Below are positions 4,415 to 64,000 of a stretch of DNA of 64,000 bases, piece after piece; positions within the stretch are counted from its first letter, which is position 1, and every line of letters begins with the position of its first letter. The notes below the pieces were generated by a model that searched no databases, had not been told where the DNA came from, and saw only the letters and a list, made by a program, of their open reading frames with translations. The DNA is from Escherichia phage JLBYU22. Where the stretch lies: the sequence record OK272484.1; one strand, written 5' to 3'. Position numbers and translations under genes: made by a program.

Positions 4415-5052
4415 TGAATGAACCCCAATTACTAATTGAAACTTGGGGTCAACCTGGCGAAATTATTGATGGCGTACCAATGCTTGAATCTCATGATGGA
4501 AAAGACTTAGGTTTAAAACCTGGTTTATACATCGAAGGAATATTCATGCAAGCGGAAGTCGTCAATAGAAATAAACGTCTTTATCCAAAACGTATATTAG
4601 AAAAAGCGGTAAAAGACTATATTAATGAGCAAGTTTTAACTAAACAAGCTCTCGGAGAATTAAATCATCCTCCACGCGCTAATGTTGACCCGATGCAAGC
4701 CGCTATCATTATAGAAGATATGTGGTGGAAAGGAAATGACGTATACGGACGAGCTCGTGTTATTGAAGGTGACCATGGTCCTGGAGATAAATTAGCAGCT
4801 AATATTCGTGCCGGATGGATTCCAGGAGTTTCTTCTCGTGGATTAGGTTCATTGACTGACACAAATAAAGGTTATCGTATCGTAAACGAAGGATTCAAAT
4901 TAACTGTAGGTGTTGATGCAGTATGGGGTCCAAGTGCTCCAGATGCATGGGTAACTCCTAAGGAAATTACCGAATCACAGACGGCGGAAGCCGATACAAG
5001 TGCCGATGACGCCTATATGGCTCTCGCAGAGGCCATGAAAAAAGCGTTATAA
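4414..5052 (+). CDS. 21: Prohead core protease gp21
   Basis: 212 aa as in T4 gp21; synteny. Confidence 0.95.
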   Translation: MNEPQLLIETWGQPGEIIDGVPMLESHDGKDLGLKPGLYIEGIFMQAEVVNRNKRLYPKRILEKAVKDYINEQVLTKQALGELNHPPRANVDPMQAAIIIEDMWWKGNDVYGRARVIEGDHGPGDKLAANIRAGWIPGVSSRGLGSLTDTNKGYRIVNEGFKLTVGVDAVWGPSAPDAWVTPKEITESQTAEADTSADDAYMALAEAMKKAL

Positions 5053-60168: not shown

Positions 60169-60954
60169 ATGGCAATTGTAGGTGTTCCTGGCTGGATTGG
60201 TGAATCTGCCGTGAATGAAACTGGACAGCGTTGGATGGATGCTGCGATGAGAGCAGTTCGTGTTTCAGTTCCTGGTTGGATGAGCTCAATGGCTGGGCAA
60301 TCTAAAGAAGTATATTATAGCATTGGTGCTAGCAATTCTTACAATAAAGACACACTAATAAATTGGATAAAAGCCCAAGGAAGCACTCCTGTTGTTATTA
60401 CTATTACAGGAAATATTGTTTCTCAATCTACTGGTGTTCCATGCTTAGATTTTCCTAGCTCATTAACTAATGCATACGTGACACTTAATATCAATTCAGG
60501 CGTGCATGTTTGGGGCCGTGGCGGGAATGGCGGAAATAACTCTGCTGGCGGAGCAGGAGGAACTGCAATAAATAACGGAATTGGAACTAGATTACGTATT
60601 AACAACAATGGTGTTATCGCAGGCGGCGGTGGCGGCGGTGGCGGCGGATACTACTCTCCTTTTTCACAAATGAAATTGACTTTTGGCGGAGGAGGCGGTC
60701 GTCCATTTGGTGCTGCCGGTGGGTCTGCTAATATGGAACAGGGTGCTACTGCTGGTACTATTTCTGCGCCAGGTAAAGGGTCTGTCAACGGTATCTATAA
60801 TGGCGGGAATGGTGGTGATGCCGGAGCCGCAGGAGGTAAATGTAATATTCGCGGTCAAGGATCAGAATATAACGGTGGTGCTGCGGGTAAAGCTGTTACT
60901 GGTAATGCTCCAACTTGGACTAAAGTTGGCACAATATATGGTTCAAGAGTATAA
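60169..60954 (+). CDS. 38: gp38 receptor-binding adhesin (T2-type) with glycine-rich motifs
   Basis: 261 aa (T4 gp38 chaperone is 183 aa); C-terminal half has poly-Gly blocks separated by short variable segments. Confidence 0.85.
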   Translation: MAIVGVPGWIGESAVNETGQRWMDAAMRAVRVSVPGWMSSMAGQSKEVYYSIGASNSYNKDTLINWIKAQGSTPVVITITGNIVSQSTGVPCLDFPSSLTNAYVTLNINSGVHVWGRGGNGGNNSAGGAGGTAINNGIGTRLRINNNGVIAGGGGGGGGGYYSPFSQMKLTFGGGGGRPFGAAGGSANMEQGATAGTISAPGKGSVNGIYNGGNGGDAGAAGGKCNIRGQGSEYNGGAAGKAVTGNAPTWTKVGTIYGSRV

Positions 60955-60986: not shown

Positions 60987-61643
60987 ATGGCAGCACCTAG
61001 AATATCACTTTCGCCCTCTGATATTCTATTTGGTGTTCTAGATCGCTTGTTCAAAGATAACGCTACCGGGAAAGTTCTTGCTTCCCGGGTAGCTGTCGTA
61101 ATTCTTTTATTTATGATGGCGATTGTTTGGTATAGGGGAGATAGTTTCTTTGAGTACTATAAGCAATCAAAGTATGAAACATACAGTGAAATTATTGAAA
61201 AGGAAAGAAATGCACGCTTTGAATCTGTCGCCCTGGAACAACTCCAGATAGTTCATATATCATCTGAGGCAGACTTTAGTGCGGTGTATTCTTTCCGCCC
61301 TAAAAACTTAAACTATTTTGTTGATATTATAGCATACGAAGGAAGATTACCTTCGACAATAACAGAAAAATCACTTGGAGGATATCCTGTTGATAAAACT
61401 ATGGATGAATATACAGTTCATTTAAATGGACGTCATTATTATTCCGATTCAAAATTTGCTTTTTTACCAACTAAAAAGCCTACTCCCGAAATAAACTACA
61501 TGTACAGTTGTCCATATTTTAATTTGGATAATATCTATGCTGGAACGATAACCATGTACTGGTATAGAAATGATCATATAAGTAATGACCGCCTTGAATC
61601 AATATGTGCTCAGGCGGCCAGAATATTAGGAAGGGCTAAATAA
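60987..61643 (+). CDS. t: Holin T
   Basis: 218 aa; single N-terminal TM helix (VAVVILLFMMAIVW) and large periplasmic domain. Confidence 0.95.
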   Translation: MAAPRISLSPSDILFGVLDRLFKDNATGKVLASRVAVVILLFMMAIVWYRGDSFFEYYKQSKYETYSEIIEKERNARFESVALEQLQIVHISSEADFSAVYSFRPKNLNYFVDIIAYEGRLPSTITEKSLGGYPVDKTMDEYTVHLNGRHYYSDSKFAFLPTKKPTPEINYMYSCPYFNLDNIYAGTITMYWYRNDHISNDRLESICAQAARILGRAK

Positions 61644-61916
61644 TTATTTGTTCGTATACATCTCTAGATATCGATATACACCCTCAAAACCCTCGTTGAA
61701 TTCGTCGATGAGGGTTTTCTTATCTTCTTGAGTTAATTCAGAAACAATTTTACGGAATGAATTCTGATTTAATTTTCTACCTTCATGCGTTACTCCAATC
61801 TCATTCAGAAATGCAATAAAATTAGCACGATTCTCAACAATATCTTCTCTGGAAAATTTAATCAAAATAGACGCAACAGTAATAATTTCACGAACTGTAT
61901 CAATGTTTTTATTCAT
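61644..61916 (-). CDS. asiA: AsiA anti-sigma70 factor
   Basis: 90 aa as in T4 AsiA. Confidence 0.95.
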   Translation of the reverse strand: MNKNIDTVREIITVASILIKFSREDIVENRANFIAFLNEIGVTHEGRKLNQNSFRKIVSELTQEDKKTLIDEFNEGFEGVYRYLEMYTNK

Positions 61917-61928
61917 TAACTATACCAC

Positions 61929-62081
61929 TCAATTAGTTGACTTTGTTATAATATCATCAGACGCTTGATTTGTAAACTGGTCTGTGTTATTTTCTTCAAA
62001 AATTTTTTCTACGAATTCCTTGAACGACTTACGTTCCTGAGCTACATTATGCTCGATTACTTTTTCAAGATTATGACTCAT
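61929..62081 (-). CDS. Small 50-aa protein between asiA and arn; not in ORF track
   Basis: ATGA overlap with the arn stop; found by hand translation. Confidence 0.5.
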   Translation of the reverse strand: MSHNLEKVIEHNVAQERKSFKEFVEKIFEENNTDQFTNQASDDIITKSTN

Positions 62082-62356
62082 TCGAAATAATCTTCAATTT
62101 CATAATCATGGACGTAAATCATTATAGTTTTTAATACATCATCAATACTTTTTCCTGGAGCTGGAATTACGTAGAAATATCCTGCTTTTGAGAGGTCTTT
62201 ATAAGTTCCAATCAAGAAATCATTATTCTCAAGATGTAGTTCTTCAACTAATTCATTAACAATTGAATGGTATAGGTTTGGTAGAAACTTATATAGCTTT
62301 TCTAGAATATCAATTTTGATTGTGTATTGAACCACGGATTGAGAATCAATAATCAT
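62078..62356 (-). CDS. arn: Arn-like anti-restriction protein (inhibits McrBC in T4)
   Basis: 92 aa and position right after asiA as in T4; assigned by size and synteny. Confidence 0.7.
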   Translation of the reverse strand: MIIDSQSVVQYTIKIDILEKLYKFLPNLYHSIVNELVEELHLENNDFLIGTYKDLSKAGYFYVIPAPGKSIDDVLKTIMIYVHDYEIEDYFE

Positions 62357-62439
62357 AGACCTTCCCCTTATGTTTCTGTTTGCGATTAGATTCTTTAAAC
62401 GCTTTCTTCTTATCCATATGAACAGAAGCTTTATTAAAA

Positions 62440-62658
62440 TTATGTTTTGCGACTAAATTGTTCATAGTGCTGAATTACCTCTCTCAAACATTTGCATGTG
62501 AATGAAAACTTTTTAGCTACACCACATTCAAATATATGTTCTCTTAAATCGTGTGTATCCGTATATCCCATCTCAACAATAAAATGCCGTATTAGATTTT
62601 TATCTTTATCATTGAGAGAATTAAAATAATCAGATTTTGAATTAATTTCCCTGGCCAA
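62440..62658 (-). CDS. Hypothetical 72-aa protein
   Basis: ORF in arn-motA early cluster. Confidence 0.5.
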   Translation of the reverse strand: MAREINSKSDYFNSLNDKDKNLIRHFIVEMGYTDTHDLREHIFECGVAKKFSFTCKCLREVIQHYEQFSRKT

Positions 62659-62938
62659 ATTGAATCACCTTCAGTTGACGTTTTAGCTCTTTTATCATCT
62701 CTTCGTTCATCGCAATATAAAGATCGCGTAAAGCAGGTTTTAGCATGTCATTTATTATAGAACTAAATGGACATACATAATCTTTTCCTACGAGCTTTTT
62801 GGTGAATTCCATATCACAGAACTTAAATCCCGGCTCATTGGTATAAATTCCCCAATTAGTTGACATCATTTTATTGGCATATTCTAGTGCCTGGATTTGA
62901 TTCATAATTCCATCAATTTGAAACTTTTTAATATTCAT
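62642..62938 (-). CDS. Hypothetical 98-aa protein
   Basis: ORF in arn-motA early cluster. Confidence 0.5.
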   Translation of the reverse strand: MNIKKFQIDGIMNQIQALEYANKMMSTNWGIYTNEPGFKFCDMEFTKKLVGKDYVCPFSSIINDMLKPALRDLYIAMNEEMIKELKRQLKVIQFGQGN

Positions 62939-63399
62939 TAGTAAAGGTCCTCAGAGTAAAGTTCTTTTTCACTACCACCACGTTCAATACGTACTTGTCC
63001 AGCGTAAGTTGCAATAATCATTGCTTCTTCACGTGTCCAATAATTACTATATTGGTCAATAAACCCTTGGTCATCATCACAAACTTGTTGAGTAACTAAT
63101 TGAGGTTTAACTACATCTAAAACTTCTGCCATATCTTTAGAATAATGACGAGCACCTGGAATAATAAGAGTTCGTCCATCTTTTAATTTAAAACGGTTGG
63201 CTGCACAGACAATTCGTCGTTGATACTTTTGGTTTTCATCCCAATATGCAGTCTGCCAACAGATTTCAGGAACTTCATCTAAAACATTTTGTTCTGTATA
63301 TTCACCACCATAAGAAGCTAATTTAGCAGCCAGACTTTCCGGAGTCTCACGAGATAAAGCTTTATCTAACAGAGCTAAACGTTCTTTAAAAGTTTTCAT
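62938..63399 (-). CDS. Hypothetical 153-aa protein
   Basis: ORF in arn-motA early cluster; no motif recognised. Confidence 0.55.
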
Positions 63400-63725
63400 T
63401 TAAACCATCCTTTAATACGCTGCCACAAAGTTTTCTGTTGAGCTTTGTTAACACCAATTGAACGAATAACCGGTTGAGATTCCTGGAATTCTTTATAATC
63501 GGCAAGGTAAATTTCGTAAGCTGCATCTGTAAAGGAACTTATCGCTGCCATAAAATTATTGCGAATACCTACTGGAGCATCTTTACTTTCACGAATAATC
63601 ATGTATTTACCAGTCTTAATCTTTACAATAGTTCCAAGATAAGCTCCATGGTACCAAATATCCCAACCCTCTTGAGTAGGTTCTGCACAACGACGAAGTT
63701 CATTGACAATTTCTAACTTGTTCAT
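63396..63725 (-). CDS. Hypothetical 109-aa protein adjacent to motA
   Basis: ATGA coupling with downstream ORF; GAGGAA RBS. Confidence 0.55.
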
Positions 63726-63735
63726 TATTTATTCC

Positions 63736-64000
63736 TCACAGTTCAGATGCTACAGTGATTACAGCTTCAATGTTTTCTGCCGAGCGTTTAATGTCAAGAT
63801 ACACATTACCGTTTTTAGCGATTTTACAAGACATTCCGATATCAGTAAATTTCTGAATATGATGTTCCATCATTTTGTATCCAAAAATTCGCATGTTTCC
63901 ATTGTTGTTAATTTCAAAATTGCGAATTCCGTGAGTGCGTTTTTCTAAAATAGCAAGATAATTACTACGATAAGTTTCAACCTTTTTAAGAACAAATCCA
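63736..64000 (-). CDS. motA: MotA middle-transcription activator, C-terminal DNA-binding part (5' end outside window)
   Basis: Hand translation of the minus strand ends in ...RSAENIEAVITVASEL, matching the T4 MotA C-terminus as I recall it; not in ORF track because no start codon lies in the window. Confidence 0.8.
   Translation of the reverse strand, partial: GFVLKKVETYRSNYLAILEKRTHGIRNFEINNNGNMRIFGYKMMEHHIQKFTDIGMSCKIAKNGNVYLDIKRSAENIEAVITVASEL

Follow-up and report, generated by a model that had tools for sequence, protein, structure and literature searches.

The arn operon in the window

The region between asiA and motA was analysed in a 64,000-nucleotide stretch of DNA from Escherichia phage JLBYU22 (sequence record OK272484.1), which we refer to as the window and whose numbering is used for all coordinates. 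The window DNA is 98% identical to sequenced Tequatrovirus genomes, and the cluster matches those of T4, NR1 and KMB39 gene by gene. Its downstream boundary is asiA (61644..61916, minus strand), which encodes the anti-sigma-70 factor, is so annotated in relatives, and specifies a product 100% identical to T4 AsiA. The upstream boundary is the 3' part of motA (63736..64000, minus strand), which encodes the C-terminal 87 aa, 97.7% identical to T4 MotA residues 125-211, and continues beyond the window. The arn gene (62078..62356, minus strand; Pfam DM_Arn, PF22134, E 4e-54) encodes the DNA-mimic McrBC inhibitor as a T2-type allele (I13, S70), which is 97.8% identical to T4 Arn and differs from it by F13I and N70S. 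The identification of asiA, arn and motA in a preliminary description of this DNA is upheld by these identities.

Five further small ORFs, of 50, 72, 98, 153 and 109 codons, correspond to T4 asiA.1, arn.1, arn.2, arn.3 and arn.4, respectively. The window ORFs are 84-100% identical to the T4 proteins over their full lengths (BLASTP/tblastn), with order and strand kept, and a PHROG family was found for every ORF of the cluster. Judged by homology and gene order, the five small ORFs are orthologues of the T4 genes. The five ORFs of the preliminary description are real and were found, all on the minus strand, at the coordinates it gave, but its label "unassigned" was mistaken, as all five bear T4 gene names, and it overlooked a sixth gene between arn.1 and arn. 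The asiA-arn-motA block is thus an already known, ordinary T4-type gene block. The T4 genome record has listed it for decades, and hundreds of sequenced phages carry it in almost the same form. It was published as the "arn operon" in a study of T2 (bioRxiv 10.64898/2026.06.19.733364), where an anti-defence role of these proteins is offered as speculation. No function for asiA.1 or arn.1-arn.4 was given in the 2026 literature, and literature searches by RefSeq protein accession and Pfam accession returned nothing relevant.

The genes form a head-to-tail array in the order motA, arn.4, arn.3, arn.2, arn.1, the DUF7230 gene, arn and asiA.1, in which stop and start codons overlap or abut. A 10-nt gap containing a GAGGAA Shine-Dalgarno sequence separates motA from arn.4. 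The ATGA coupling claimed in the preliminary description was confirmed at arn.4/arn.3 and arn/asiA.1; the arn.3/arn.2 junction is TAATG, and arn.2 and arn.1 overlap by 17 nt. The region contains two terminator-like sites, both on the plus strand, and no terminator-like site was found on the minus strand within the array. Its sole strong promoter-like site lies upstream of asiA, in the 3' half of asiA.1 (61948..61976, minus strand). This site, a consensus match of the sigma-70/T4-early type (GTTTACA-17-TG-TATTAT), is the best match in the region (10/12 with TG) and probably drives asiA. A search of 61500-64000 for a MotA-box middle promoter was negative, and the arn operon's own promoter falls outside the window, so assignment to a single transcription unit rests on gene packing and on the literature, in which arn.4 through arn are co-transcribed (T2 RNA-seq, bioRxiv 10.64898/2026.06.19.733364). 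The array fits one message with translational coupling.

Summed pN/pS, calculated over non-independent pairs, was 0.14-0.34 for every ORF, and stop codons occurred in no homologue. Because of these low ratios and stop-free homologues, the cluster ORFs are taken to be genes rather than chance frames, and by this measure all of them are genuine protein-coding genes under purifying selection. The plus-strand antisense ORFs had no PHROG match. Hydrophobic segments were absent and GRAVY was negative in all six proteins. The products would be small, soluble, cytoplasmic proteins, presumably made in the first minutes of infection and dispensable in laboratory hosts, and most likely bind host or phage macromolecules.

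Start codons, the DUF7230 gene and the ArcZ site

The arn.4 gene (63396..63725, minus strand) encodes 109 aa from an ATG at 63725, with its GAGGAA Shine-Dalgarno sequence in the motA stop region, as supported by the lengths of its homologues. T4 RefSeq lists only the last 68 aa. Every Arn.4 homologue down to 46% identity aligns with 100% coverage and has a length of 107-119 aa, and conservation is highest in the N-terminal 41 aa (pN/pS 0.12 vs 0.32 for the rest). This conservation identifies the 109-aa protein as the real form of Arn.4 and the T4 RefSeq start as truncated.

Similarly, arn.1 (62440..62658, minus strand; phrog_4452) encodes 72 aa from a TTG start at 62658, with the Shine-Dalgarno sequence AAGGTGAT located 6 nt upstream, and T4 RefSeq lists only the last 43 aa. 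The position of this TTG is ATG or GTG in other genera, where the annotated Met30 of T4 is mostly Leu; codons 4-29 are under the same constraint as codons 30-65 (pN/pS 0.37 vs 0.36) and contain no stops, and the length of phrog_4452 is 72 aa. On these comparisons, the 72-aa Arn.1 is the real form and its T4 RefSeq start is likewise truncated. Since tblastn gave 97-99% identity over the full lengths, the differences between T4 RefSeq and the window (43 vs 72 aa for Arn.1, 68 vs 109 aa for Arn.4, and omission of the DUF7230 gene) lie in annotation and not in sequence.

The sixth gene (62346..62465, minus strand) overlaps the end of arn.1 and the start of arn and encodes a 39-aa peptide with a pI of 10.1. 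It matched Pfam DUF7230 at E 3.9e-11 (43.3 bits; curated cut-off 27) and phrog_1359 at E 1.6e-22 over residues 1-39/39. Its pN/pS is 0.19, its own start codon and Shine-Dalgarno sequence are kept in 24 distinct homologues, and it was found in 1210 phage records, in single copy in each. It is missing from the annotation of T4 RefSeq, NR1 and KMB39. The ribosome-rescue factor ArfA was considered as an identity for this basic peptide and rejected, as BLASTP gave no alignment to E. coli ArfA. Of the six conserved early genes, the reference annotation of T4, the best-studied phage, gives two with wrong starts and lacks one.

The corrected start of arn.1 bears on the regulation of the operon. ArcZ and RNase E control of the arn transcript was described in T2 (bioRxiv 10.64898/2026.06.19.733364). 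We found the ArcZ sRNA pairing site CCAGGGAAAU (CCAGGGAAAT) at 62645..62654 (minus strand), at the 3' end of arn.2 (62642..62938, minus strand), which encodes a 98-aa protein 96% identical to T4 Arn.2 (phrog_1844). The presence of the site is read from the sequence: it pairs without mismatch to AUUUCCCUGG of E. coli ArcZ, has a single occurrence in the 64 kb of the window, and agrees in position with the published arn.2 +285 to +294 (bioRxiv 10.64898/2026.06.19.733364). All 10 arn-bearing loci have the site, and none of the other loci has it at this junction. With the true start of arn.1, the pairing site occupies +4 to +13 of that ORF, which puts it on the translation start and not in a spacer. 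The GCAUU motif (GCATT; 62583..62587, minus strand; sequence match) precedes the internal ATG of arn.1 (Met30) by 11 nt and was proposed as an RNase E site (bioRxiv 10.64898/2026.06.19.733364). Like the ArcZ site, it falls inside the true arn.1 frame, and so in coding, not intergenic, sequence. The arn.2/arn.1 junction matched no Rfam family and showed no stable RNA structure (z = -0.64); scanning the whole fragment for ArcZ duplex energy was not informative, as such a scan ignores intramolecular structure.

The 2026 ArcZ study and genome-wide screens relied on the reference annotation with these start errors. In the CRISPRi-ART supplement, guides on all five genes scored "Not Fit", with those for arn.1 and arn.4 placed at the truncated starts. 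A "Not Fit" score obtained with guides placed in this way says little about arn.1 and arn.4, and the corrected starts change how guide and knock-down data for the two genes should be read.

Gene distribution and possible functions

The distribution of the genes suggests two layers. The first would be a frame made up of arn.4, arn.3 and the DUF7230 gene, in many cases joined by arn.2 and arn.1, which appears to travel with MotA/AsiA across genera; because of this conservation, the frame probably serves general host takeover. The second would be a hypervariable slot just upstream of asiA, occupied by arn and asiA.1 in the close relatives of T4. Across 40 loci, the interval from the DUF7230 gene to asiA ranges from 219 to 1107 bp and contains 19 unrelated ORF families; in Tequatrovirus it holds arn and asiA.1. 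Arn itself was found in 484 phage records, at at least 90% identity in all. The asiA.1 gene (61929..62081, minus strand; phrog_3762) encodes an acidic 50-aa protein (pI 4.9) that is 96% identical to T4 AsiA.1, is ATGA-coupled to arn and has a pN/pS of 0.14; in our locus table it is confined to arn-bearing loci, which are those of close T4 relatives. The distribution of arn.1 and arn.2 in the same table is intermediate between slot and frame genes; arn.2 homologues, 34-65% identical, occur in most T4-like loci (pN/pS 0.14). The reading as a whole, a Tequatrovirus arn operon made up of T4 orthologues and the DUF7230 gene, with a conserved frame beside a hypervariable slot, is in our view very probably correct.

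Counter-defence genes are usually lineage-restricted and found in hypervariable slots. Since AsiA.1 shares its slot with the counter-defence gene arn, it is the best candidate in the cluster for a putative anti-defence protein or Arn partner. The distribution would favour an anti-defence role for AsiA.1 and argue against one for Arn.3 and Arn.4, and that of Arn.4, Arn.3 and the DUF7230 peptide appears to fit general takeover better than strain-specific counter-defence; the step from conserved distribution to the exclusion of counter-defence is a heuristic, as widely conserved inhibitors of widely conserved defences exist.

The preliminary description had made all five small ORFs candidates for anti-defence or host-modifying proteins. 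It is unlikely, however, that each of them is a dedicated counter-defence protein directed against a different bacterial immune system. Such a function would agree with their co-transcription and translational coupling with the gene for a proven McrBC inhibitor, with their small size, early timing and apparent dispensability in the laboratory host, with the restricted distribution that asiA.1 shares with Arn and its place in a hypervariable slot, and with a weak likeness of the Arn.3 fold to large polyvalent protein domains (E 1.5e-3 to 0.1). Yet zero of the five match the Arn DNA-mimic family, and Arn.4, Arn.3 and the DUF7230 peptide are conserved as one copy per genome in phages of many genera and hosts, whereas anti-defence genes typically have a patchy distribution. 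Furthermore, pN/pS values of 0.12-0.37 gave no sign of diversifying selection, the variable N-terminus of Arn.3 (0.35) included. By the preliminary description's own measure, such roles would be refuted if each ORF proved homologous to a T4 protein already characterised with an unrelated function; homology to T4 proteins was found, and characterised unrelated functions were not. The division into frame and slot places asiA.1 first for defence-inhibition screens, and directs arn.4, arn.3 and the DUF7230 peptide to studies of general takeover.

A second explanation, which we regard as quite unlikely, is that MotA/AsiA sigma appropriation, or early-to-middle expression, has accessory factors in Arn.4 and perhaps also in Arn.3 and the DUF7230 peptide, which would then have no part in anti-defence. 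Only 10 nt lie between motA and arn.4, the Shine-Dalgarno sequence of arn.4 falls in the motA stop region, and the two genes are neighbours in nearly all loci. Arn.4 was found in 1001 records, at identities down to 34%, and among the listed enterobacterial phage genera its counts closely follow those of MotA (Arn.4/MotA: Escherichia 550/550, Klebsiella 164/164, Enterobacter 35/35, Salmonella 30/30, Shigella 78/79, Yersinia 30/32). The strong constraint on its N-terminal domain (pN/pS 0.12) and the pI of the DUF7230 peptide (10.1), which would be compatible with nucleic-acid or ribosome binding, point the same way. However, MotA occurs in Acinetobacter and Aeromonas phages that lack Arn.4 by tblastn, Arn.3 homologues are present in many phages without MotA or AsiA, and the fold of Arn.4 has no match. 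Conserved synteny alone is no proof of a functional link, and in vitro MotA and AsiA activate middle promoters without further phage factors, which also counts against an accessory factor.

Arn.3 carries a domain of a very large, phage-specific family. The gene (62938..63399, minus strand) encodes 153 aa, 84% identical to T4 Arn.3 (phrog_839, E 2e-73), and the protein consists of a variable N-terminal helical region (residues 1-43; pN/pS 0.35) and a conserved core of about 110 aa (residues 44-153). Invariant residues are R61, A66, A67, R84, H85, Q111, G112, F113, D115, R123 and Q135, and the motifs RxIVxAANR, GxRH, QGFxD, REEA and LxSExLY are invariant or nearly so in sets of 69 and 111 sequences. 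The family includes 3426 representative clusters at E<=1e-3, mostly stand-alone proteins of 90-170 aa, and homologues were found in 1589 phage records. Cellular genomes essentially lack the near-T4 form: 185,579 bacterial and archaeal species genomes gave only 3 MAG contigs. The profile searches and structure prediction proposed in the preliminary description yielded no usable functional match. Apart from arn, all ORFs matched only families of unknown function in Pfam, NCBIfam and PHROGs, and PF26092 on the Arn.3-type domain is a precomputed label only. Single-sequence and profile searches of the PDB with Arn.3, Arn.4, Arn.1 and Arn.2 returned nothing below E 0.1. The AF2 models of Arn.3 (pLDDT 88.7) and Arn.4 (pLDDT 81.2) likewise had no Foldseek match in the PDB at E<=1e-3, the best TM being about 0.3, and in BFVD the Arn.3 model matched almost only uncharacterised phage proteins.

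Because Arg, His, Gln and Asp residues are strictly conserved, binding of a ligand or catalysis is a more likely role for the Arn.3 core than simple protein mimicry. More speculatively, and with a slim chance of being right, the core may be the founding member, encoded by T4, of a very large and essentially phage-restricted family with a fold absent from the PDB, whose Arg/His/Gln/Asp site binds or cleaves a phosphate-containing small molecule, such as a nucleotide of immune signalling or a cofactor of the host, while the DUF7230 peptide and Arn.4 would be unrecognised T4-type takeover components and the ArcZ site would act on the translation start of the 72-aa Arn.1.

It is improbable that Arn.3 is instead a nucleotide or RNA-metabolism enzyme that serves phage nucleic-acid metabolism and not host conflict. 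Sporadic database labels ("tRNA processing enzyme", "putative polynucleotide kinase") hint at this, and the invariant Arg, His, Gln and Asp residues would suit phosphate chemistry, but the labels are unsupported, as 111 diverse members have no Pfam, NCBIfam or PDB match and share no Pfam family. In unrelated phages the gene has MazG-like, NADAR-like and metallophosphoesterase neighbours, as judged from their translations, and a Kuttervirus homologue adjoins topoisomerase II genes. These neighbours are not consistent across loci, with no recurring partner in 38 non-T4-like loci, and domain fusions were not informative, as one RMF domain was the only Pfam partner among 38 longer members. In addition, arn.3 scores as dispensable in T4 (CRISPRi-ART).

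Finally, that asiA.1, the extension of arn.1 to 72 aa and the 39-aa ORF are chance open frames in AT-rich DNA is hardly credible and largely refuted: all three are short, the high nucleotide identity of close relatives could imitate conservation, and the promoter-like site within asiA.1 could account for part of the conservation of that gene, but pN/pS is 0.14, 0.37 and 0.19, respectively, no stops occur among 19-24 distinct homologues with identity down to 46-47%, start codons and Shine-Dalgarno sequences are kept, and curated families exist (DUF7230, phrog_3762 and phrog_4452).

Comparison with known systems

The frame-and-slot organisation can be set against several described systems. The closest is the T4 arn operon (NC_000866, 161163-162956: asiA.1, arn, arn.1-arn.4), whose genes, order, orientation and overlaps are the same in the window; in sequence, the window differs by an alternative N-terminal allele of Arn.3 (84% identity overall) and by the T2-type I13/S70 variant of Arn. 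The ArcZ site and the GCAUU motif described for the T2 arn operon are present as well.

Phage large polyvalent proteins are thought to carry counter-defence modules. The Foldseek matches of the Arn.3 model include proteins, 767-1354 aa in length, that bear the annotation "Large polyvalent protein associated domain" (E 1.5e-3, 4.2e-3 and 0.11); these matches are weak (TM 0.35 on the query), and none of the 111 Arn.3 family members matched an LPD Pfam family.

Members of the Arn DNA-mimic family (PF22134, DM_Arn) inhibit McrBC and bind H-NS. AsiA.1 resembles Arn in being small and acidic (pI 4.9 vs 4.5 for Arn) and co-distributed with it, but none of the five ORFs matches PF22134: at E<=1, DM_Arn matched arn itself and none of asiA.1, arn.1-arn.4 and the 39-aa ORF. 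Other slot proteins were considered as diverged Arn mimics, which found no support, as they had no DM_Arn match. Database labels of "anti-restriction nuclease" on arn.1-arn.4 come from gene names or ACLAME 1193; because none of these proteins matches the Arn family, the labels are without evidential basis.

In T-even phages, anti-defence genes tend to sit in hypervariable slots between conserved genes. The interval between the DUF7230 gene and asiA is like these slots in its variable content; it differs in that only arn and asiA.1 lie within it, and the other four ORFs belong to the conserved frame.

T4 identity and organization of the arn gene array

The preliminary description listed five small ORFs of 50, 72, 98, 153 and 109 aa between asiA and motA as unassigned. 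Annotations of phage NR1, phage KMB39 and T4 use the names asiA.1, arn, arn.1, arn.2, arn.3 and arn.4, and direct comparison with T4 gave identities of 100% for asiA, 96% for asiA.1, 97.8% for arn, 97% for arn.1, 96% for arn.2, 84% for arn.3, 99% for arn.4 and 97.7% for the motA fragment. The five ORFs are therefore known, named T4 genes (asiA.1 and arn.1 to arn.4). Over its final 2.4 kb, the window was, as DNA, 97-98% identical to hundreds of Tequatrovirus (T4-like) genomes. The block is securely identified as the ordinary, already known T4 arn operon, and the earlier interpretation of the ORFs as candidate anti-defence or host-modifying proteins is, as a whole, partly supported and not new.

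In the ORF listing the genes lie head to tail on the minus strand, running from the partial motA (63736 up to the end of the window) through arn.4 (109 aa, 63396-63725), arn.3 (153 aa, 62938-63399), arn.2 (98 aa, 62642-62938), arn.1 (72 aa, 62440-62658), a 39-aa ORF referred to here as the DUF7230 gene (62346-62465), arn (62078-62356) and asiA.1 (50 aa, 61929-62081) to asiA (61644-61916). The coordinates, sizes and strand described previously were all correct, and the ATGA coupling was seen in the junction sequences of arn.4/arn.3 and arn/asiA.1. The arn.3/arn.2 junction has a TAATG overlap, arn.2 and arn.1 overlap by 17 nt, and the DUF7230 gene overlaps its neighbours by 26 and 11 nt. Only 10 nt separate motA from arn.4, whose ribosome-binding site, GAGGAA, lies within the motA stop region.

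When the window was compared with T4-like loci from a viral contig collection, non-synonymous differences were far rarer than synonymous ones in every ORF of the array. The pN/pS ratios, which are descriptive rather than tests since the pairs are non-independent, were 0.14 (asiA.1), 0.04 (arn), 0.19 (DUF7230 gene), 0.34 (arn.1), 0.14 (arn.2), 0.23 (arn.3) and 0.25 (arn.4). On this evidence, all of these ORFs are real genes. Antisense ORFs on the plus strand had no family match, and no Rfam RNA family was found in the arn region.

A preprint on phage T2 (June 2026, bioRxiv 10.64898/2026.06.19.733364) places arn.4-arn.3-arn.2-arn.1-arn on a single transcript, named the "arn operon", with a known function for Arn only and counter-defence guessed for the other products. 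The genome-wide CRISPRi-ART knock-down screen of T4 classed all five genes as "unknown", and their guides scored "Not Fit", i.e. without fitness cost in the laboratory host. Arn of the window (62078-62356, minus strand) differs from T4 Arn only by F13I and N70S, which is the T2-type allele. N70S is reported to abolish the inhibition of the PUA-Cal-HAD defence system by Arn (2026 preprint, PMC12871103), and the window phage is therefore predicted to be sensitive to it. The gene following gp37 (60169-60954, plus strand) encodes a 261-aa glycine-rich protein, annotated as a tail-fibre protein in relatives, whereas its T4 counterpart is the 183-aa assembly factor gp38; receptor recognition would therefore be T2-style rather than T4-style.

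Corrected reading frames and regulatory sites

The useful remainder of this analysis consists of three annotation corrections and prioritised experiments. First, the DUF7230 gene, between arn.1 and arn, is a sixth gene of the block. It matched Pfam DUF7230 above the curated threshold and phrog_1359 over its full length, and its own start codon and Shine-Dalgarno sequence were kept in 24 distinct homologues with identity down to 47%. It occurred in more phage records (1210, exactly one copy each) than MotA (1142), Arn.4 (1001) or Arn (484), and is not annotated in T4 RefSeq, NR1 or KMB39. The peptide is lysine-rich and very basic (pI 10.1). Four other PHROGs, with differing tails, also matched its first 25 residues.

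Second, Arn.1 is 72 aa long, not 43. Other genera have ATG or GTG where the window has TTG (62658), and T4's annotated start, Met30, is usually Leu in them. Constraint was equal on the two sides (pN/pS 0.37 for codons 4-29 versus 0.36 for codons 30-65), and a Shine-Dalgarno sequence, AAGGTGAT, lies 6 nt upstream of the TTG. Third, Arn.4 has 109 aa, not 68: homologues down to 46% identity were all 107-119 aa, and residues 1-41 were the best-conserved part (pN/pS 0.12 versus 0.32 for the remainder). The T4 RefSeq starts (arn.1 Met30, arn.4 Met42) are thus too late, and omit conserved coding 5' extensions at 62569-62658 and 63603-63725 (minus strand). Because the CRISPRi-ART guides for arn.1 and arn.4 were built on these truncated starts, "Not Fit" may not reflect a real knock-down.

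E. coli ArcZ contains AUUUCCCUGG. The 64-kb window has a single perfect complement of this sequence, CCAGGGAAAU, at 62645-62654 (minus strand); this position at the arn.2 3' end agrees with the reported ArcZ pairing position. All 10 arn-bearing loci had the site at the arn.2/arn.1 junction, where every other locus lacked it. It spans +4 to +13 of the corrected arn.1 frame, after the TTG start, and a GCAUU motif, a putative RNase E site, lies at 62583-62587 (minus strand), 11 nt before the internal ATG. With the corrected start, both therefore fall inside the arn.1 reading frame, and the 70-nt "intergenic region" of the T2 preprint is coding sequence; for both elements, these observations concern position only.

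A strong T4-early-type promoter-like site, GTTTACA-17-TG-TATTAT, is located inside asiA.1, upstream of asiA. No MotA-box promoter was found in 61500-64000, so the array is probably served by a promoter beyond the window, upstream of motA. On the plus strand, a terminator-like hairpin with a 14-bp stem (61686-61718) falls within the convergent asiA, at its 3' end; it presumably serves holin gene t (60987-61643) as terminator.

Conserved and variable parts of the cluster

We tabulated the window proteins against 78 related loci. Close T4 relatives were the sole carriers of arn and asiA.1, nearly all loci with motA and asiA had Arn.4, Arn.3 and the DUF7230 gene, and the presence of arn.2 and arn.1 was variable. 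In the phage database, all Arn homologues were at least 90% identical, versus a minimum of 34% for Arn.4. Among the enterobacterial phage genera listed, the genus counts for Arn.4 closely followed those for MotA. From the DUF7230 gene to asiA, the interval was hypervariable (219-1107 bp), with 19 unrelated families of ORFs across 40 loci, and in Tequatrovirus it is occupied by arn and asiA.1. The cluster therefore comprises a conserved frame and a variable slot, and asiA.1 is the only one of the five ORFs inside the slot. In a 172,733-bp T4-like viral contig (L037), the slot holds a 128-aa ORF (4554-4937, plus strand) whose C-terminal residues 90-119 match the Pfam profile for the Gp23 major capsid protein at its beginning (E 1e-4). 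We take this segment to overlap the Gol peptide region sensed by Lit protease; the ORF could be a decoy or targeting peptide.

As to function, we infer that the translationally coupled array would be a source of small cytoplasmic proteins at an early stage of infection. Arn is the proven DNA-mimic inhibitor of McrBC, and the other products would be dispensable, probably binding other macromolecules. AsiA.1 is the best candidate for a counter-defence protein or Arn partner; a conserved takeover role is more likely for Arn.4, Arn.3 and the DUF7230 peptide.

Structure and relatives of the Arn proteins

Profiles of Arn.1 and Arn.2 had no match among solved structures; the Arn.2 homologues from the word-indexed search were too close for a good model. 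The Arn.4 model begins with a helix, followed by a small beta-sheet and a long helix; after a low-confidence linker it ends in a basic amphipathic helix. It has no structural neighbour in the PDB. The hydrophobic moment of the C-terminal helix (0.59) is similar to that of the FtsA membrane-targeting helix, a likeness that is only a lead.

Arn.3 has a helical, variable N-terminus (residues 1-43; 63271-63399, minus strand) with two sharply different alleles among relatives otherwise 97-100% identical. T4 carries MNPFINRLKMLNVPL... and the window the other allele, which is common to phages of other genera, suggesting mosaic exchange; this region gave no sign of positive selection (pN/pS 0.35). 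Invariant core residues are R61, A66, A67, R84, H85, Q111, G112, F113, D115, R123 and Q135, and LxSExLY is found at the C-terminal end of the conserved core. When 1.84 billion representative proteins were scanned in full with HMMER, 3426 clusters were recovered at E<=1e-3, most of them stand-alone proteins of 90-170 aa, and all 111 family members tested belonged to phrog_839. The phage records with Arn.3 numbered 1589, among them those of Salmonella, Pseudomonas, Serratia and Erwinia phages without other arn genes; cellular genomes almost entirely lacked it. Fusion partners and neighbour genes were uninformative.

The AlphaFold model of Arn.3 was confident (pLDDT 88.7) and had no structural neighbour in the PDB. 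Arn.3 may be a domain that binds a ligand or acts catalytically. In the viral structure library, nearly all of its matches were phage proteins that are uncharacterised or carry doubtful labels, with a weak structural match to "large polyvalent protein" domains. An Arn.3 homologue in Salmonella phage ISTP3 (Kuttervirus; locus L087, 3869-4282, plus strand) bears the unsupported label "tRNA processing enzyme". It lies three genes downstream of a topoisomerase II medium-subunit gene, which recalls the T4 order 52-motA.1-motA-arn.4-arn.3.
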